From the IMG/VR virus record IMGVR_UViG_3300031760_000006, positions 91,127 to 155,126 of that record: 64,000 nucleotides of DNA; one strand, given 5' to 3'. The translations under genes were made by a program, and so were the position numbers. Shown here in pieces: positions 4,263 to 40,445 of the stretch. Every line of letters begins with the position of its first letter. The first letter of the stretch is position 1. The DNA is from a virus (lineage: Duplodnaviria > Heunggongvirae > Uroviricota > Caudoviricetes). Below the pieces are notes generated by a model that was not told the DNA's origin, searched no databases, and saw only the letters and a program-made list of their open reading frames with translations.

Positions 4263-4469
4263 CTATTTATATTCGATTCTGTTATTTATCCAATTCTTAG
4301 AATTATTATTTCTCCAAGTTTTCTTCTTTTTATATCTAATACAATCCCAACCACCAAAAAAAGGATGGGTAATTAAATAGCCGAATTCAGAACAGACATA
4401 TCTGACAAATCCTTCTTTTAATAATTTTGTGTCTGTTGTACAGTTTTGACATGATGAACAGTGTTTCAT
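4263..4469 (-). CDS. small Cys-rich (zinc-ribbon-like) protein
   Basis: 68 aa. Contains CSSCQNC and several further Cys residues. Confidence 0.3.
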   Translation of the reverse strand: MKHCSSCQNCTTDTKLLKEGFVRYVCSEFGYLITHPFFGGWDCIRYKKKKTWRNNNSKNWINNRIEYK

Positions 4470-4966
4470 ATTTTCTCCTCTTTAAAATCGTAATAAACAA
4501 TCGGCTTCCCAATTTTTCGGGCATAATTAACAGTTAACCATGTACCGCCAACTTCTACTCCATCCCATACGGCAAGAAGTAAATCGCAGTTATCTACCAT
4601 GTACTTATCTCTGAACCAGTAAACTCTTTTGCCAGTATATGCTTCTGAGATAAATTTGATGTCTTTTGCTTTGCTAAGTATTTTTTGTTCTTCTTGATGA
4701 AAAAAGTTTTTTCTGTATGGATAACAGCAAATTAAAGGAATGTCTTTTTCAACGGCTACTTGTGCAAAAATTTGGTCAGCACCTTGTGCCATGCCCGAAA
4801 TGGCTTCTGTACATTTGTGCTTGTCGAGTTGTAAAGATAACCACTGTTTGATGTTTTCTTGTTGGTTTTTTAATCGGTTGGGTCTGTGACCTGTCACTGC
4901 TATTTTCATATATTCTCCTCTTTTATTTAACAAGACTATAAAACGTAAGTCTTTTACCATCTCCAA
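4466..4966 (-). CDS. SLOG-superfamily YpsA-like protein (DUF1273-like)
   Basis: The N-terminal region MKIAVTGHRPNRL...GMAQGADQIFAQVA...LLLAVWDG matches the YpsA/DUF1273 pattern (TG.KP, GxxxGAD/E, LLLxYD). Recalled from memory. Confidence 0.45.
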   Translation of the reverse strand: MEMVKDLRFIVLLNKRGEYMKIAVTGHRPNRLKNQQENIKQWLSLQLDKHKCTEAISGMAQGADQIFAQVAVEKDIPLICCYPYRKNFFHQEEQKILSKAKDIKFISEAYTGKRVYWFRDKYMVDNCDLLLAVWDGVEVGGTWLTVNYARKIGKPIVYYDFKEEKI

Positions 4967-31768: not shown

Positions 31769-33046
31769 TTAAACTACTTTACATCTTGTCAATACAGTCT
31801 GTTTTACATCCTTAAATTCGGAATGCTGTTTAACAGTTCCTTTTAAAGTCTTTACAATGATTTCATCTTCATCATTGCCAATCCATTTACTTGCCTTCCA
31901 GATAAAGACATTGCCTTCTTTATCTTTAAACTTATACATATAAGTGTAACCCCATTGAGTTTCCCAAGAGGTTAACAATCTAGCATCTGCTACATCAACA
32001 GAGATTCTTTCACCAATCTCTCCAATGTAATCAGATTTCTGTTCCAGTTCCATTTCTCTTTTTCTGCGTTCTGCTCTGATTCTTAACTCTGCCTGATAAG
32101 CAAGTTCTTTATCATAAGCGGTCATCAGAGAACAAGCAAGACCTAAATGCTTTGCGTTGACATAATCACTAGAACAAACTACTTTTAAGTTATTCATGTA
32201 GTTGTTGTCTTTCTCTTGTGTTCTTACCCACGCAAGAGCATCATCAACGAACTGTTCATTTTTTTTGTAGTTGTAGTTCATGTCAGTTAATTTTTTACGC
32301 CAAGCATAAACCTCTTTATCCGACCACATATATGGTTTTCTGTTCTCTTCAATCATCATGGAAAGCCATGCCATATCATAAGTCGCATCAGGCTCTTGCG
32401 ATTTTCTGTAACCAAATTTGTTACACCATTCTTTACAGTGCATCAAATATCTTTTTAAGTTGTAATAAGTTTCATGGCGAGAACCCTCATAAGGAGCTTC
32501 ACCTTCAATTAATTCATTGAACATGCTCATGTATGCCGCAACTCCAGCCGCATCAAATCCGTGAGTGAAATCTTTTAAGCAAGACCTGCCTACCTGTTTA
32601 AATTCGTTTGTGTTTATGTTGCGGATAATATAAGTATCTTTCCTTCTTCTGTTTGTTTTGCAATGTTCGCAAACAGGCTCTGCATCATAGTACCTCTCAG
32701 GTACTTCAACACCCTCTGCATAACCATTAATGATGTTACCATCTGAGGTATGCTCAAGAGTTGCAACAAACTCCCAATCATTCACGATTGCCTTGCCATT
32801 CACATGGATAACAATCTGTTTAATGACTTCCTTTTCACCAAGTTTGTTTTCAATCGTTGTATACTCTTCACCAATTTTCTTGTAGGTAAAGTCACAACCA
32901 TATTTGTTACACTTGTTGCGGATACGAGTAAGTTTCTTCTCGAGGCGATTCATGTTGCCTTCGTAAATGCGGAAGATGTTGTCTTTCTTTTTCTCTGTTG
33001 TTGCGTTTGTTACTTCGTTTGTCTTATTTGTTACTTCCATAACCAT
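31769..33046 (-). CDS. hypothetical protein
   Basis: 425-aa ORF with no recognised motifs. Confidence 0.45.
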   Translation of the reverse strand: MVMEVTNKTNEVTNATTEKKKDNIFRIYEGNMNRLEKKLTRIRNKCNKYGCDFTYKKIGEEYTTIENKLGEKEVIKQIVIHVNGKAIVNDWEFVATLEHTSDGNIINGYAEGVEVPERYYDAEPVCEHCKTNRRRKDTYIIRNINTNEFKQVGRSCLKDFTHGFDAAGVAAYMSMFNELIEGEAPYEGSRHETYYNLKRYLMHCKEWCNKFGYRKSQEPDATYDMAWLSMMIEENRKPYMWSDKEVYAWRKKLTDMNYNYKKNEQFVDDALAWVRTQEKDNNYMNNLKVVCSSDYVNAKHLGLACSLMTAYDKELAYQAELRIRAERRKREMELEQKSDYIGEIGERISVDVADARLLTSWETQWGYTYMYKFKDKEGNVFIWKASKWIGNDEDEIIVKTLKGTVKQHSEFKDVKQTVLTRCKVV

Positions 33047-33365: not shown

Positions 33366-34184
33366 TTAATGATAAGACAAAACAACACTCTGAACATCCT
33401 CATCACAATTTGCTTGCTTAAAGGATGAACATCCTTTATTTTCAGCTTTGCACTCGGAACAATTACCGCTACAGAAGTAAGCGTGTTTCAATCTCGTTTC
33501 ACTTGCAGTGGTAGTTCCATCTGCGTATAAGATATGACTCTCTGGTAAATGATGTGGATTATCCAAAGTCATTCCTTCAAACCCGCTAAGTAACGGATGA
33601 ATACCGTCCTCAAATTTATCTGAACCAGTTTCTCTTTCTTTTTCATCAAGGTAAGCGTTGCACCCACTATGATTTTTAGTGAAGAAGATAATATCTGTAT
33701 TCGGAAGTTTCTTTTTTAACTGGTCAACGAAGAAGAAATCCGTATCTGCAAGGTCACCACCTACATTGATTCGAAGTTCTTCAACTCCTAATCGGATACA
33801 CTCTTCGTATACCTGTTGCCAAAAGATTTCAGGAAAGAGAAGATGCAAAGCTGAATTCCTTGCACGGTCATTCTGTACCGCTGGCTGAAAACATACATTA
33901 TGAATATCGTAGCAATCAAGCCTACACCCTTCACAATTAGGACAATCAGCCACAGGAATCAAACTAACTGTGTAAACAGTTTTACCTGTTTTTGAATTCC
34001 CTTTCTGAAGAACAATTCTGTACATCTCTCCGTTTCGAAGTCGTATTATATATCCTTCACGAAGTTTAAGCATCTGCCCTACTCGCTTCTGAACGGTTTT
34101 CATAGACCGCTTTTTCTTTTTCTTCGGCATGATGCTTAAAGCGAATTCCTTAATGTTCATTTTGATTAAACTAAGTTTTAACAT
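33366..34184 (-). CDS. hypothetical protein with CPNCEGCRLDC cysteine cluster (possible Fe-S or zinc binding)
   Basis: 272 aa. Has a Cx2Cx2Cx3C cluster plus a C-terminal CSGNCSEC. Confidence 0.4.
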   Translation of the reverse strand: MLKLSLIKMNIKEFALSIMPKKKKKRSMKTVQKRVGQMLKLREGYIIRLRNGEMYRIVLQKGNSKTGKTVYTVSLIPVADCPNCEGCRLDCYDIHNVCFQPAVQNDRARNSALHLLFPEIFWQQVYEECIRLGVEELRINVGGDLADTDFFFVDQLKKKLPNTDIIFFTKNHSGCNAYLDEKERETGSDKFEDGIHPLLSGFEGMTLDNPHHLPESHILYADGTTTASETRLKHAYFCSGNCSECKAENKGCSSFKQANCDEDVQSVVLSYH

Positions 34185-34301: not shown

Positions 34302-35342
34302 TTACCATCTTCCCTTCTTACTACCATAGATGACGTCCATCTTGGCATAGAAGTCAAAGCGATTCTCTTCGATTACTTCCTTCATTAAGCCAAGGAATTT
34401 GTAACCACCGAATCCACAGCAATGTGCGAAGTCAGTAAAGTAATCTTCCCTTCCGCAATACTGCTGTCTTGCAAGTTCAAGATTTCTCTTGCTCCCCTGA
34501 CCACCCTGACGAAGAACACATCCATGATTCAGAATCATGTTCTCTAAGGTGTAGTAAGCACCACTTGCCTTGAAAGCCTCAACCCAAGCTACGGACTTCT
34601 TAGTATCTCTTGGCAAGTTGATAGTGCAATCACGGAAGGACTTAAATGCAATATACATCTTCTTATAATCATCCTTCGTTCTAGCTGTGGCAAAATTATA
34701 CATTGCCATGTTCATATTAGGTACTAACTCATTTCTAATAAATTCCCTAATATGGATACCTCTACTACATCTTCCGTAAGTTACATTATCTCCCTTTCTA
34801 ACTGCGGGGTAAACCCAACCATAATTGCCATAATAACCCCTACTAATCTTCTTCTCAAGATATGCTACTGTCTCTGCCTGAATATCACGCATAATTGCGG
34901 TTACAACCAACGGATTAAAGAATCCCTTCCTGATTTCAAACTCATCAGGGTCTCTCTTCTGCATCTTAACGAGTGTTCTCAACTCATCTTCCGTTGTCTT
35001 AAGGACATACTTGATGTCCTTATCCTTGAGATATCCATTGTATCCTCCTTCATGATTCAAGGCACGGAACATCTGTGCCATTACCCAACGGCGATACTTA
35101 CCGGGGTAATTAATAGTTCCCTGATTAAGAATACTCTGCTTGAGTTCTTCAAGATTAATTCCGTTGATATAAACAATGGAATCCTTAATCTCTACGTTTG
35201 CTCCTGTCTCAACGAGCATCTTAAGTGTATTCTCTCTGTCTGTGCTGGGTTTATTTGCCTTTCTCATAGCGGTATCCTCCTTTGTGTTGTTTGTATTTGC
35301 GGTGGTGTTAATTGTTACATTAATATTCATTTCTTTTCTCAT
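34302..35342 (-). CDS. hypothetical protein
   Basis: 346-aa ORF. Confidence 0.45.
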   Translation of the reverse strand: MRKEMNINVTINTTANTNNTKEDTAMRKANKPSTDRENTLKMLVETGANVEIKDSIVYINGINLEELKQSILNQGTINYPGKYRRWVMAQMFRALNHEGGYNGYLKDKDIKYVLKTTEDELRTLVKMQKRDPDEFEIRKGFFNPLVVTAIMRDIQAETVAYLEKKISRGYYGNYGWVYPAVRKGDNVTYGRCSRGIHIREFIRNELVPNMNMAMYNFATARTKDDYKKMYIAFKSFRDCTINLPRDTKKSVAWVEAFKASGAYYTLENMILNHGCVLRQGGQGSKRNLELARQQYCGREDYFTDFAHCCGFGGYKFLGLMKEVIEENRFDFYAKMDVIYGSKKGRW

Positions 35343-35379: not shown

Positions 35380-35928
35380 TTAATAACCTAAAATCCATTC
35401 TCTCAAGAGAATTAAATCTTTATCCCTTGGACTTACCCAATACCAATGTTTGGGATTCTTCCAATACATTTTATCTGTTACAATTGCACAAACAATGTAT
35501 CCTTCAAGAATAGCCTGTGCAAGTGAACGTGATTCACCAACAACGAATTCCTTATCTGTCAGTTCATCATTCGTTTTAGCTTTGAAATAACTTCTCTTGC
35601 AATTCTTATCAGGGCGAGAAGTTTTAAATATCTCATAGTTGCTTTCAATGATTTCATAAGGGTCTCTATTAGATAAGTTTATGGTGTATCCATTCTGTAT
35701 CACCCCTTCCTTAATTAAGTATTTTTTATTCACTTTAATAGTTCTTTTTTTTATGTTGATATAAAACGGTTTCTCTTGCGATACTTCATCAAATAAAGTA
35801 TCCATAACATCTTTTACTTCTCTTGCTTCTTTCATTTTGTTCCCTTCTTTCTTAGTACTAAAGACATTGATTTTTTCTTTATTTGTTTGATGAAAGTACC
35901 TGCGGCTCACGAATTGAACAGCTTCCAT
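35380..35928 (-). CDS. hypothetical protein immediately downstream of the hairpin-cassette array
   Basis: 182-aa ORF. The true start may be the internal MKEAREV. Confidence 0.4.
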   Translation of the reverse strand: MEAVQFVSRRYFHQTNKEKINVFSTKKEGNKMKEAREVKDVMDTLFDEVSQEKPFYINIKKRTIKVNKKYLIKEGVIQNGYTINLSNRDPYEIIESNYEIFKTSRPDKNCKRSYFKAKTNDELTDKEFVVGESRSLAQAILEGYIVCAIVTDKMYWKNPKHWYWVSPRDKDLILLREWILGY

Positions 35929-36019
35929 GTAAGTGGCTGGAATGTCTGACCAAGATATTCCAGCGACAAGTGGAAGCCAAGTCGTGGGCAGCAGGTATGT
36001 CTAAATTATTTGTCTTCTC

Positions 36020-36600
36020 GTACTTTTCACATACTAAAAGCTTGATGTTATTTCTTTATGCGGTTGATACCTTACTCCAGACGGCCCTGACGTACCGGGC
36101 GTCTGAAAGTAACCATCTCCATCAGACGCCAGGTACGTCAGGGCCGTCTGGAGTTGGTTGAATTGTTTGCTTTCTCGTATGTGTTTTTTGCCTTTTGCCT
36201 TTCACTTTTATTTCTTTTTTGGCTCGACTTCTCTTAATTTAAGTATACTAAAAGCTTGATTTTTTCTTTATAGGATTGATATCGTTCCCGGATCCCGCCT
36301 ACGGGCTGGTTCAGGAAAGAGACATCGCATCCTGAACCAGCCCGTAGGCGGGATCCGGGATGAGATGCTAATTCTTTGCTTTCTCGTACACTTCGACCAA
36401 ATACTAAAAGCTTGATGTTTTCTTTATTTGCTTGATACATATACAGCAGCTCGTGAGGCGACCCTCCTAAATCGGGTGTCCCCGACTGCTGCGGATTTAG
36501 AGTGTCAACGATGAATGGCAGCAGTCGGGTTCCCCGATTGGAGGGACGCCTCACGAGCTGCTGTAGAGGTTGAAACTCTTTGCTTTCTCGTATTTAGTCT
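36020..36600. repeat. three tandem cassettes with conserved flanks (ATACTAAAAGCTTGATG...TTGATAC at 5' on the plus strand, TTGCTTTCTCGTA at 3'), each holding a different GC-rich long hairpin
   Basis: Hairpin stems run 36075..36153 (about 32 bp, one mismatch), 36286..36360 (31 bp, perfect) and 36443..36564 (about 47 bp, imperfect). The flanking repeats recur at about 36031, 36246 and 36411. Confidence 0.8.
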
Positions 36601-36620
36601 TTCTTTCTTTTTTCTTTTTT

Positions 36621-38033
36621 TTAAGCGGCGATTCCTGCATTCACCTCCATTTCTCTTACAATCGCCTTATATAACTCTGGATGAGTTTTTAAGTTCTTTT
36701 GCATACATAATGGAGAGTAGTAATTCTCAATATGCTTTACTTTTTTCTTGTTATAATGGCTGTTACCATATCTGTTATAAATTTTTGTTCCGTCTTTTAA
36801 TTCAAAGGGTTTGTTACTATTAGGTCTGTAAATCACAACTCCTTCGTCATAAGGTTCGTAACCAATTCCTGCAATATCTTTATGATTTGTCTTGCAAGAT
36901 TTGATACAATCCATGATGAATTCGTTTATTCTTTTTAAATCTTCTTCACAGTTGACAATTGGAAGAATACTTGTTGCCCAAGAATATTCTCCGTTTCCAA
37001 TATAAAGGATTCGATTGACTGCGTTGACTGCCCCCTTCATTGAGATTTTTTTCTTAAGAGTAGCTTCTTTTATCTGTTCTCTTAATTTCTCTAATCTCTT
37101 TCTTGAAATTGTTATTTTACTTCCTTTTATTGAGAATCCTAAGAACGTAATCCATCCGTTTTCATAAACAGATTCAACCTTCTTCGGATTCAATGTTAAT
37201 CCAAAACTCATAAGTCTTGCCTTGAGATAGCCCAAAGCATACTCATGATTCTTACAAACAAAGAGAATGTCATCTGAATAACGAACATACTGTCCGTTGC
37301 AGATTTTGTTCATTTCTTCATCCATGTCATAAAGAAGCACATCAGCTAACCAAGAAGCTACTGCACAGCCTTGCTTTAAAGACTGATAACGATGAACTAA
37401 TTCACCATCAATATAACAAGTATCTTGATGATAATATTTCCTTAAGATTGTGATGATACAAGACTTTCCAAATTCCCTTTCGAATCTGTCAAAGATTGCA
37501 TCAATAAACTCAATAGGTACTGAGTCAAAGTATTTAGAAAGGTCTGCTTTCGCTCCAATCTTTCTTCCTTTTTTAATTTGTCTTCTCTGTTTTCTATTGA
37601 GTTCTTCAAATCTTTTTCTTCTGAATATTTTTTTACTGCCGTGAATAATCCATTTAGATACTTTCACGACAATTTTACCAGTTCCAATTCCCTTCTGATA
37701 AGACAAGCAATGAGGACTTATCCAACCTCCTGCCTTAAGTGTTATAGTGAACAAAGCATTCGTTATAACACTGAGGAATATTCTGTCTTGTCCAGAATTA
37801 ATAAACACTTTCCTGAATTCTCCGGGCTTGTCTTTTGGTATCTGTTGTACATCTGGAATACCAATTGTATACTGTTCCAAGACAGCTTTTTCAAAAATCT
37901 CTTCCGCTCTGTATTCAGGGTTGGAGATTTTATTTAAGATTCCTTGGGGAATCTCTTTTATAATTGCTCCTGTGCGTAAGGCTTCTTCCCAATAAGAATA
38001 TTTTTTGCATTCCTCAAGAAGAATATCTGCCAT
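36621..38033 (-). CDS. reverse transcriptase (retron / DGR / group II-like RT domain; subclass undetermined)
   Basis: RT motifs RKVFINSGQDRIF (1), SYQKGIGTGK (2), KADLSKYFDSVP (3), LKQGCAVASWLADVLL (4), YVRYSDDILFV (5, YxDD), GLTLNPKKV (6) and TFLGFSI (7). Confidence 0.85.
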   Translation of the reverse strand: MADILLEECKKYSYWEEALRTGAIIKEIPQGILNKISNPEYRAEEIFEKAVLEQYTIGIPDVQQIPKDKPGEFRKVFINSGQDRIFLSVITNALFTITLKAGGWISPHCLSYQKGIGTGKIVVKVSKWIIHGSKKIFRRKRFEELNRKQRRQIKKGRKIGAKADLSKYFDSVPIEFIDAIFDRFEREFGKSCIITILRKYYHQDTCYIDGELVHRYQSLKQGCAVASWLADVLLYDMDEEMNKICNGQYVRYSDDILFVCKNHEYALGYLKARLMSFGLTLNPKKVESVYENGWITFLGFSIKGSKITISRKRLEKLREQIKEATLKKKISMKGAVNAVNRILYIGNGEYSWATSILPIVNCEEDLKRINEFIMDCIKSCKTNHKDIAGIGYEPYDEGVVIYRPNSNKPFELKDGTKIYNRYGNSHYNKKKVKHIENYYSPLCMQKNLKTHPELYKAIVREMEVNAGIAA

Positions 38034-38085
38034 GCTTTCTCACTCCTTTCTTTTGTTTTTTGCTTTGGTTAATTAACTCCACAGA

Positions 38086-38121
38086 GTACCCAACTTTGTA
38101 TTTATTTCAGTTGGGTACTCA
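38086..38121. repeat. perfect 12-bp inverted repeat GAGTACCCAACT / AGTTGGGTACTC (copy 1 of a GTACCCAAC...GTTGGGTAC family)
   Basis: Intergenic, between the RT start and the upstream gene, flanked by TTAATTAA. Confidence 0.6.
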
Positions 38122-38142
38122 AGCAATTAATTAAATTGTTTT

Positions 38143-38421
38143 TTATTCGTCTTCGTCTTCAACCATCGCTTTCAATACATTATACAGTTCTTCCAGTTCC
38201 TCTCCTGTGAATCCAATACACTTCACAGGAATCTCTCCCTCTCCGTTGGGGTTTTTCTTCCATGTCTGGAAGTAGTACTTTTCAGCGTTTTCGTTGTACT
38301 TTCCGTAAGTCAGGCGAACATCTCCCTTCTTACCGAATCTTGCACATTCTTCTTCCATGTGGTAGACGATATTTCTCTTGTTGTTTTTCTTTTCGGTTGT
38401 GTTTGATTTTTTAATAGCCAT
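38143..38421 (-). CDS. hypothetical protein
   Basis: 92-aa ORF. Confidence 0.4.
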   Translation of the reverse strand: MAIKKSNTTEKKNNKRNIVYHMEEECARFGKKGDVRLTYGKYNENAEKYYFQTWKKNPNGEGEIPVKCIGFTGEELEELYNVLKAMVEDEDE

Positions 38422-39506: not shown

Positions 39507-40445
39507 TTAGACGGCCTCCTTCATCATTGCGTATGCCTTGTCAATCAATGCGTTACCGTCAATCGTTTTCATAAAACGATTCTCGGCGAAGTTCTTTGTC
39601 TTTCTGAATGGAATGGTATGCGTTGCAAAGTCGCTTACAGCGTTCACGAACCTGTAAGCAGATTTTTCAATGTCTACCAAATCCGGGGCTTCATGATAAC
39701 GAATCCGTAATTCGTTTCTCATGTCCTCGATTCTGCGAATCTTGGTCTGAGAAGTTTCGGTTTCGCTTAAAGGAATGAGCATGTTAATATACTCATCTAC
39801 CTTGTCATCAGTTAAAGTCATCAACTTTAACTCGCCGAATTCTTCATGGAGTTCTTCCATATAAGCATCAGCATTAATCAGTGTTCGTTTCGCTTCTTCA
39901 AGTTTGCCTTTGATGTCACCGACATGAACACAAGACCATTTACGGTCAGCAGACTTTAAAGCAAGATTAAGTGTATTCTGACATACCACTCTGATAGGAG
40001 TGATTGCCACGTTAATAGCTCCCTTACCGTCATGAGAGTTTGTGAATACAAGATATGGTGACACTCTCTCACCTGTAATCAATCTGTCTTCCATCTTAGC
40101 AAGCATCCAAATTCGTTTGCCTGAAGCAAGTGAGCCAGCCGTTTCATACTTGACCCCTTCACCAAGAAGAGCATCAGTGAATTCGAATGCTTCGATGTTC
40201 TGTACAATTCTGTATCTGTCAGTTACCATTCCAAGTACCTGTCTATCAATGTCTCTGATGTTTGCCTTGAATCCCGGGATTAAAGTTTCGTTGTCAGTAT
40301 AAACATCTGACTGGATTACCTTCCAGTCAAGACCTGCATAAATGATTGCGTCTTTAGAAGTGGGTGCGTATTCAATACTAGTTCCAAGTCCATGCCATGG
40401 TGTTTCTCTTCCTACAAAAAACATACTTTCTACATTAGCTGCCAT
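39507..40445 (-). CDS. phage/plasmid-like protein of unknown function (DUF932-like)
   Basis: The N-terminal FFVGRETPWHGLG...AGLDWKV resembles the DUF932 family N-terminus. Recalled from memory. Confidence 0.4.
   Translation of the reverse strand: MAANVESMFFVGRETPWHGLGTSIEYAPTSKDAIIYAGLDWKVIQSDVYTDNETLIPGFKANIRDIDRQVLGMVTDRYRIVQNIEAFEFTDALLGEGVKYETAGSLASGKRIWMLAKMEDRLITGERVSPYLVFTNSHDGKGAINVAITPIRVVCQNTLNLALKSADRKWSCVHVGDIKGKLEEAKRTLINADAYMEELHEEFGELKLMTLTDDKVDEYINMLIPLSETETSQTKIRRIEDMRNELRIRYHEAPDLVDIEKSAYRFVNAVSDFATHTIPFRKTKNFAENRFMKTIDGNALIDKAYAMMKEAV

Follow-up and report, generated by a model that had tools for sequence, protein, structure and literature searches.

A stretch of 64,000 nucleotides (nt) from the genome of a Caudoviricetes virus (IMG/VR record IMGVR_UViG_3300031760_000006, positions 91,127 to 155,126; called the window in the following) carries a reverse transcriptase (RT) gene that is followed by an array of long GC-rich hairpins set between almost identical flanks. 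Does this arrangement represent a new kind of RT-associated element, or is it a known system in an unfamiliar form? A preliminary description of the window had favoured the first answer and proposed a new cassette of several non-coding RNAs (ncRNAs), the geometry of which fitted none of the known types. The analysis reported here led to the second answer. Judged by its likeness to characterised systems, the locus is very probably a complete phage-carried UG27 RT system composed of the RT, an array of four ncRNA units, a small accessory protein (sORF) and a large accessory protein (bORF), which follow one another in this order and all lie on the minus strand.

Mestre et al. (2022; PMC9226505) placed UG27 in class 2 of the UG/Abi RTs, with gut phages as its main carriers. 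They linked it to two proteins of unknown function and predicted a structured ncRNA, comprising three long stem-loops, in the interval from the RT to an accessory gene. In the 'Minerva' preprint (bioRxiv, 24 Sept 2026; 10.64898/2026.09.22.753630) this region was presented as a variable array of ncRNA units, with modal unit lengths of 149 and 167 nt and an additional class of ~135 nt that has no pseudoknot. The main covariance model of that study contains an extra basal hairpin and a pseudoknot, and the asymmetric internal loop of every unit contains short motifs that are conserved. In five systems the RT, the sORF and the bORF were all needed for the production of single-stranded DNA (ssDNA) of 50-100 nt, which mapped to each central hairpin and extended from the AUC of AUCNNNNNNNUANAG to past the UUYA motif. 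The inactivating RT mutant was a change of YSDD to YSAA, and no complementarity was found for the UG27 complementary DNA (cDNA). The proposal of a new cassette type was thus overtaken by these two reports, the first of which contains the UG27 ncRNA and the second the array and its cDNA products; the system itself is already described, and the locus in the window adds a new and divergent member to this family.

The reverse transcriptase belongs to the UG27 group

The RT gene had been recognised previously, together with its active-site sequence YVRYSDDILF, and this was confirmed: the gene encodes a protein of 470 amino acids (aa) in which all catalytic motifs, YSDD included, are kept (Table 1). 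The protein matched the RT_UG27 profile of PADLOC with 435.6 bits (E 4.7e-131), whereas the runner-up, UG26, reached 112 bits and was followed by UG17 and then by far weaker retron, Cas and DRT profiles. The profiles of DRT2 (UG2), DRT9 (UG28) and DRT3 (UG3+UG8) gave E values of 1e-14 to 1e-15. RVT_1 was the only domain found by Pfam, and the sequence Y-V-R-Y-S-D-D was unchanged in nine aligned UG27 RTs. A group II intron was considered and rejected, as no maturase domain accompanied RVT_1 and no intron model of Rfam matched; the profile result places the RT in UG27 and not, as had been envisaged as a possible outcome, among intron maturases with the units as intron remnants.

The RT was compared with related contigs and one related protein (L001-L008 and P0001, respectively) and with a set of 70 UG27 loci fetched from bacterial genomes. 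Its database relatives were 97, 74, 59, 58, 57 and 57% identical, followed by a large mass of sequences at ~42-46%, and the RTs of the 70 loci, which come from gut bacterial genomes, were 38-46% identical. The locus belongs to a rare and divergent clade, the RT of which is no more than 46% identical to those of mainstream UG27. The nearest genome-borne RT was that of Ruminococcus sp. AM36-2AA (45% identity), and the sole named close protein match came from Blautia intestinalis. Close relatives were found only in ENA and Logan assemblies, and IMG/VR queried with the RT protein alone gave no relative. Two insertions were noted in the window RT: a basic one of 22 aa (KKIFRRKRFEELNRKQRRQIKK), common only to this RT and to P0001, its 97% relative, and one of 16 aa in the C-terminal part, common to this RT and four relatives.

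The locus was observed to be a mosaic in comparison with L002. Nucleotide identity to this contig was 92% from position 37550 to 34250 (mid-RT, array, sORF and bORF) and only 69% in the 5' third of the RT gene. The junction lies at positions 37550..37650 of the window (RT codons ~130-160), at the 22-aa insertion, and this shift in identity suggests recombination inside the RT gene.

Four tandem ncRNA units follow the reverse transcriptase

Directly after the stop of the RT gene, and ahead of the sORF, there are four units on the RT strand (Table 1), and the functional strand of the array is minus, the same as that of the RT. The preliminary description was right about the tandem arrangement and about the near-identical flanks, but it counted three units, whereas both of the flanks that it quoted are present in four copies. 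Copies of the long flank start at 35856, 36031, 36245 and 36401 according to a repeat finder, and the short flank TACGAGAARRYAAA is matched exactly at four places of the window, each of them on the minus strand (36009, 36166, 36375 and 36579). Unit D, of which an orthologue is present in L002, was overlooked because an open reading frame (ORF), 35380..35928, runs across it. The number of units was four in the window and in L002 and three in L003.

Three ORFs called across the array were regarded as artefacts of ORF calling, namely the one just mentioned (182 aa, minus strand), one of 92 aa at 35883..36161 (plus) and one of 106 aa at 36234..36554 (minus), the last two lying wholly inside the array hairpins. 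Units B and C are separated by an A-rich spacer of 65 nt (ACUUAAAUUAAGAGAAGUCGAGCCAAAAAAGAAAUAAAAGUGAAAGGCAAAAGGCAAAAAACACA; 36180..36244, minus strand), which is kept in L002, and the remaining gaps between units measure 8-12 nt. This spacer may be what is left of a lost unit, or it may serve as an internal promoter. A scan for tRNAs found none.

Table 1. Coordinates of the UG27 locus in the window, of its predicted products and of the gene upstream
Feature	Position in window	Strand	Length	Basis or remark
UG27-group RT	36621..38033	minus	470 aa	YSDD active site in YVRYSDDILF
ncRNA unit A	36592→36401	minus	192 nt	fold, motif, compensatory changes, covariance model (CM) R1 match
ncRNA unit B	36388→36245	minus	144 nt	fold, motif, stem changes vs L003
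ncRNA unit C	36179→36031	minus	149 nt	fold, motif, compensatory changes vs L002
ncRNA unit D	36022→35855	minus	168 nt	fold, motif, CM R1 match, orthologue in L002
sORF, small accessory protein	35380..35835	minus	151 aa	homology, syntenic position
bORF, large accessory protein	34302..35342	minus	346 aa	tblastn syntenic homology
upstream neighbour	38143..38421	minus	92 aa	46-50% identity to ORFs upstream of RT, L001-L006
predicted cDNA A	36434-36574 (plus-strand coordinates)		141 nt	DNA fold -56.6 kcal/mol
predicted cDNA B	36278-36371 (plus-strand coordinates)		94 nt	DNA fold -44.4 kcal/mol
predicted cDNA C	36066-36162 (plus-strand coordinates)		97 nt	DNA fold -44.5 kcal/mol
predicted cDNA D	35889-36005 (plus-strand coordinates)		117 nt	DNA fold -33.7 kcal/mol

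Read from 5' to 3', the units consist of UAC-GA-GAARRY, AAA..UUYA, the central hairpin, AUC-N7-UANAG, 10-13 nt, the complement of GAARRY and A-GUA. An asymmetric internal loop, closed by the basal stem, carries UUYA on the 5' side and AUCN7UANAG on the 3' side, and it brackets the central hairpin, the sequence of which differs from unit to unit. AUCN7UANAG was found in all four units, at the correct position and on the RT strand, within a span of 560 nt. Ten further matches were spread through the 64 kb, on both strands, and from the window counts the chance of finding four matches in the array was estimated at P ~5e-7. An exact UUYA is present in units A, C and D. The basal stem of unit A reads UAC/GAAAGC : GCUUUU/GUA, with UUCA at 36574-36571 and AUCAAGCAAAUAAAG at 36436-36422. 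Unit B carries AUCAAUCCUAUAAAG at 36280-36266, and unit C has UUCA at 36162-36159 and AUCAACCGCAUAAAG at 36068-36054. In unit D, UUUA is located at 36005-36002 and AUCAAACAAAUAAAG at 35891-35877, and the basal stem GAAGACA:UGUCUUU covaries with those of the other units.

The central hairpins proved to be as long and as rich in GC as first described. The hairpin of unit A (36437-36570) has outer arms of 31 nt that are 90% complementary and an inner stem of 12 bp, which makes ~45 pairs; that of unit B (36286-36360) has 31-nt arms with 100% complementarity, and that of unit C (36074-36154) has 33-nt arms with 97% complementarity and one mismatch. The hairpin of unit D (~35897-35995) is imperfect. 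Folding of the units, suggested earlier as a check, was carried out on RNA and compared with dinucleotide shuffles. Units A to D gave -104.3, -78.9, -76 and -58 kcal/mol, corresponding to z-scores of -13.8, -11.0, -11.8 and -6.4, and no shuffle equalled any unit. The contrast in composition between the cores and the genome was also evident: the GC content of the cores was 57.5, 64, 60.5 and 52.5% (A to D), against 34.3% in the window and 30% in the array without the cores (flanks and spacers). Only six 80-nt segments of the 64 kb (10-nt step) reached 58% GC, and all six were inside cores A-C.

A loose motif, GAUGNCUCU / GUUGACACU(C)U / GUUGUCACUU, was seen by eye in six of the seven apical loops compared (four window units and three L003 units), unit D being without it. 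In the window it is located in the loops of unit A (~36495-36515), unit B (~36317-36329) and unit C (~36107-36121); the L003 loops are at L003:4108-4128, 4306-4322 and 4527-4541. The motif is shared despite completely different stems beneath. A pseudoknot and a mini-hairpin at the start site were considered for the window units and were not established, as independent sequences are few.

Covariation and homology at the RNA level

In order to assess the pairing more precisely, the basal stem was compared across 12 units of the clade. In this set 92.5% of the cells were paired, versus 30-45% with slid partners, and 7 of the 14 pairs were altered on both sides, several of the rows being close orthologues. 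The stem types were GAAAGC:GCUUUU, GAAGACA:UGUCUUU, GAAGAU:AUCUUU and GAAAAC:GUUUUU, and L005 and L006 contributed a further type, GAAAGU:ACUUUU. The central hairpins keep their position and order in L001 and L002. Their stems showed two compensatory changes in unit A relative to L001 and L002 and three in unit C relative to L002, and eight stem pairs of unit B differed on both sides from its counterpart in L003, both hairpins being near-perfect helices. Since the central stems vary by compensatory pairs, their pairing appears to be under selection.

A covariance model built solely from units of the window clade served as an independent test at the RNA level. In the window it matched only the four units, by construction, and the next best match had an E value of 0.25. 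The model recognised arrays of the same clade outside the training set (L006, E 7e-12; L005, E 2e-9) as well as canonical UG27 arrays in seven loci (L117, 1e-6; L133, 9e-5; L097, 3e-4; and, also below E 0.01, L082, L078, L115 and L106), and 31 of its 33 matches were on the RT strand. In most of the 70 UG27 loci the RT was followed by two to eight regularly spaced copies of the motif AU[C/G]N7UANAG, ~130-240 nt apart, and these loci include the Alistipes putredinis and Phocaeicola coprophilus strains named in the preprint, and in many of these loci the motif array began ~100-140 nt past the RT stop. The layout of an RT followed by an array is therefore a rule of the family, and the statement that the geometry fits nothing known had to be given up: for a UG27 RT, a downstream array on the same strand is the usual arrangement. 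Searches of IMG/VR with the 5' flank pattern gave 64 single matches that were seemingly due to chance, none of which fell below E 0.08 with the unit model, and the specific 3' flank pattern had no match in IMG/VR and the JGI metagenomes.

Two accessory genes complete the system

The proteins encoded by the two genes downstream of the array are homologous to the accessory proteins of canonical UG27 loci, and the genes also correspond to these in position. In L002 and L003 the order is RT, a non-coding gap of 0.6-0.8 kb, a gene of ~150 aa and a gene of ~350 aa, and the order RT, gap, sORF and bORF was also found in most of the 70 genome loci. Translation of the sORF most likely begins at position 35835, at an ATG with AAGAAGGGA in front of it, rather than at the ATG at 35928, and the L002 homologue was called at 151 aa, matching this start. 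In tblastn searches, the sORF matched the ORF after the array in 57 of the 70 loci (A. putredinis DSM 17216, E 8e-15; P. coprophilus DSM 18228, E 2e-16), and the bORF matched a syntenic ORF in 55 of them; both of these strains are among the loci matched by the accessory proteins. Neither protein belongs to a Pfam or PHROG family. The structure model of the bORF is confident (predicted local distance difference test, pLDDT, 79) and resembles only generic helical bundles, and that of the sORF, made from an alignment of 6 sequences, had a pLDDT of 33.

Predicted products and alternative explanations

By homology with the systems of the preprint, the array would be transcribed with or after the RT gene. 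A complex of RT, sORF and bORF would recognise the conserved loop in each unit; cDNA synthesis would start at AUC, copy the central hairpin and stop just past UUYA, and one short ssDNA hairpin would be released per unit (predicted cDNAs A to D in Table 1). The preliminary description had listed multiple templates for cDNA among the possible functions, and this is what experiments have established for homologous UG27 systems (10.64898/2026.09.22.753630); by analogy, it is expected to apply here. The compensatory evolution of the stems argues for an importance of the structure of the product over its sequence, and because no complementarity was found either in the window, in related loci, in phage records or in exact-match scans of IMG/VR and the JGI metagenomes, a structure-based role is favoured over a sequence-targeting one. 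As a speculation, the cDNAs may bind host proteins in the course of infection, or act as decoys for them, by virtue of their structure and not of sequence complementarity.

Several observations weigh against the assignment of the locus as a functional UG27 system of the published kind. Its RT shares no more than 46% identity with those of the UG27 systems used in the published experiments. The window units are without the canonical 5' pseudoknot domain and have instead a simple nested stem, UAC/GAAAGC:GCUUUU/GUA. Unit B has no exact UUYA, its 5' loop reading AAUUAGCA (UUA-G). Two of the predicted products, A with 141 nt and D with 117 nt, exceed the reported range of 50-100 nt, and a promoter and terminator scan gave neither element in the array above the shuffled expectation. 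Because the 5' domain is missing and a nested stem closes the units, the window clade probably corresponds to the pseudoknot-less class of the preprint.

A bolder reading takes these differences as the mark of a distinct UG27 subtype that would make unusually long (94-141 nt), near-perfect, GC-rich DNA hairpins as shape-based decoys or ligands. The features of this subtype would be the missing pseudoknot domain, the basic RT insertion and a putative PC4-like ssDNA-binding neighbour (see below), its targets would be host nucleic-acid sensors or nucleases, and the apical-loop motif GAUGNCUCU / GUUGACACU would be the feature recognised. Such a subtype is conceivable but unlikely.

A further explanation, which we consider very unlikely, is that the array of this divergent clade functions chiefly at the RNA level, for instance through long dsRNA-like hairpins that are RNase III substrates or protein sponges, the RT step being secondary or lost. 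Near-perfect RNA helices of 31-45 bp, as they are present here, are expected substrates of RNase III, and the lack of the canonical pseudoknot domain would fit such a role. A function as RNA only is nevertheless disfavoured because the catalytic motifs of the RT including YSDD, the start motif AUCN7UANAG and the stop motif UUYA in the right places, and both the sORF and the bORF are retained; moreover, a class of units without pseudoknot exists within UG27 (10.64898/2026.09.22.753630).

It is highly improbable that the units are retron-like, that is, that each is an msr/msd giving branched multicopy single-stranded DNA (msDNA) primed from the 2'-OH of a conserved guanosine. As in retrons, a YxDD RT would copy a structured ncRNA into a short ssDNA hairpin, and a match of the RT to the retron-type domain cd01646 was noted in the preprint (10.64898/2026.09.22.753630). 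However, the retron RT profiles of PADLOC matched the window RT with E values of ~1e-10 to 1e-11 versus 1e-131 for UG27, and no retron msr of Rfam matched at the gathering or at the permissive threshold. Rfam as a whole gave nothing at gathering thresholds and, in permissive mode, only far-sub-threshold miRNA-precursor models, which reflect generic long hairpins. The window units are tandemly repeated and lie downstream of the RT, and the homologous systems need two unrelated accessory proteins.

Variable cores between conserved repeats, beside an RT and with a composition unlike that of the genome, also recall diversity-generating retroelements (DGRs) or spacer acquisition, in which the cores would be templates for the rewriting of a target or captured host or foreign DNA; a host origin of the cores had been suggested in the preliminary description. 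No core had a second copy in the 64-kb window or in 1.5 Mb of related loci, hence no target resembling a variable repeat (VR) was found, and the whole array had no match in 50,697 phage records. Scans with a 24-mer of core B in IMG/VR and the JGI metagenomes and with a 20-mer of core C in IMG/VR gave no match, these being exact-match scans from which diverged sources would escape. A 15-nt match of core A to L131 was judged to be due to chance (E 0.15). Neither Cas1 nor DGR accessory genes were found, the CRISPR-associated RT profile matched the window RT only with E 7.6e-17, orthologous cores keep their order in relatives and change by compensatory pairs, and the preprint (10.64898/2026.09.22.753630) reports no complementarity. 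The lack of core matches together with the evolution of the stems by compensatory substitution makes a captured-sequence origin disfavoured, and this explanation as a whole retains only a slim chance.

Finally, the view that the hairpins are ordinary terminators, attenuators or palindromes of the repetitive extragenic (REP) kind, functionally unrelated to the RT, agrees with their being GC-rich intergenic stem-loops between co-oriented genes, but its probability is close to nil, as no T-run follows any hairpin on either strand, the terminator scan was negative in the array, the hairpins sit within conserved flanks that form a covarying basal stem, the same motif-bracketed units trail UG27 RTs in dozens of unrelated genomes, so that the linkage to the RT holds across the family, and homologous units serve as RT templates (10.64898/2026.09.22.753630). 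What stands of the initial interpretation is the RT-associated cassette of multiple ncRNAs that is neither a retron, nor a DGR, nor a group II intron, as judged from profiles, Rfam and geometry, and the UG27 system is the form in which it is now recognised.

Neighbouring genes and phage context

The 92-aa gene upstream of the RT is present throughout the clade and adjacent to the RT in most members, with homologues at L001:5172-5903, L002:707-1438, L003:1882-2589, L005:4666-4914 and L006:4224-4469; no counterpart was found in the 70 mainstream UG27 genome loci. Several of the L001-L006 homologues have precomputed matches to PF02229 (PC4), and the window protein itself had no Pfam match even at E 10. 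On the evidence of these homologues, the 92-aa protein is possibly a PC4-like ssDNA-binding protein, and it may be functionally tied to the ssDNA product. In a Blautia intestinalis prophage, the gene directly upstream of the UG27 RT (L007:4050-4991) has a weak match resembling Phage_ProQ_C. This is a domain of the RNA chaperone type, so that a second nucleic-acid-binding neighbour of a UG27 RT was observed.

The gap of 109 nt between the 92-aa gene and the RT start contains a 12-bp hairpin at 38084..38120 (GAGTACCCAACT / AGTTGGGTACTC, with a loop of 13 nt), which is flanked by sequence resembling TTAATTAA and is not followed by a T-run on the minus strand. This hairpin may have a regulatory function or act as a weak terminator. 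The RT and the sORF are each preceded by a strong Shine-Dalgarno sequence on the minus strand (AAAGGAG in 38034..38060 and AAGAAGGGA in 35836..35850, respectively). The strong Shine-Dalgarno sequences and the GC content of 34% suggest a host of the Bacillota rather than of the Bacteroidota.

PHROG annotation of the phage context gave a Dda-like helicase/exonuclease V, a primase, a DnaB-like helicase, Sak4, a NAD ligase, an integrase and an RNA ligase. Closer to the locus, a DUF932 gene is located upstream (39507..40445, minus strand), and genes for a weakly GP88-like protein (33366..34184, minus) and a phrog_2319 protein (31769..33046, minus) are located downstream. Because these neighbours recur in the distant UG27 loci L003, L007 and L008, the system appears to occupy a fixed place in a module of the early or replication type.

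Comparison with known systems

DRT2 (UG2), DRT9 (UG28) and DRT3 (UG3+UG8) have in common with the window an RT of the UG/Abi superfamily and a neighbouring structured ncRNA as template. They are class 2 and class 1 UG defence RTs and belong to host defence systems, not to phages. DRT systems have a single ncRNA, which is located upstream of the RT in UG2 and UG28, and produce long concatemeric or homopolymeric cDNA. Retrons, like UG27, use a structured ncRNA to produce short hairpin ssDNA in abundance. They differ from the window in the clade of the RT, in the single upstream msr/msd, in the 2'-5' branched product and in the accessory effectors. Retrons are also not known to form natural multi-unit arrays; such arrays have been engineered as 'multitrons' (PMC10370050).

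The locus shares with UG27 the RT clade, YSDD, the sORF, the bORF and the phage context. In both, the RT is followed on its own strand by tandem units of ~135-190 nt, their number varies between relatives, and a variable central hairpin is bracketed by UUYA and AUCN7UANAG; units C and D have the modal lengths given in the preprint. Canonical UG27 units have a 5' domain, AUGAGAAC…GCAC…GUUC-RAGG, before UUYA and a 3' strand, AUGUGC, directly after UAAAG. Crossing complementarity indicates that this 5' domain would form the published pseudoknot. The window units keep a 5' element, UA(C/U)GAGAA, in common with the canonical AUGAGAAC. Unlike mainstream UG27, the window RT carries the basic 22-aa and the C-terminal 16-aa insertions, three of the four hairpins are near-perfect with 58-64% GC, and a putative PC4-like gene, confined to the window clade, lies upstream of the RT.

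No other UG-type RT system is so far known to be carried mainly by phages. The locus described here opens no new category beside UG27 and adds a divergent, compact variant, in which the units are simple and nested, the hairpins very clean and the templates only four in number. This variant could serve as a convenient minimal model for the recognition of RNA by RT, sORF and bORF, for priming and stopping of cDNA synthesis, and for the contributions of sequence and structure to the product of UG27 systems.

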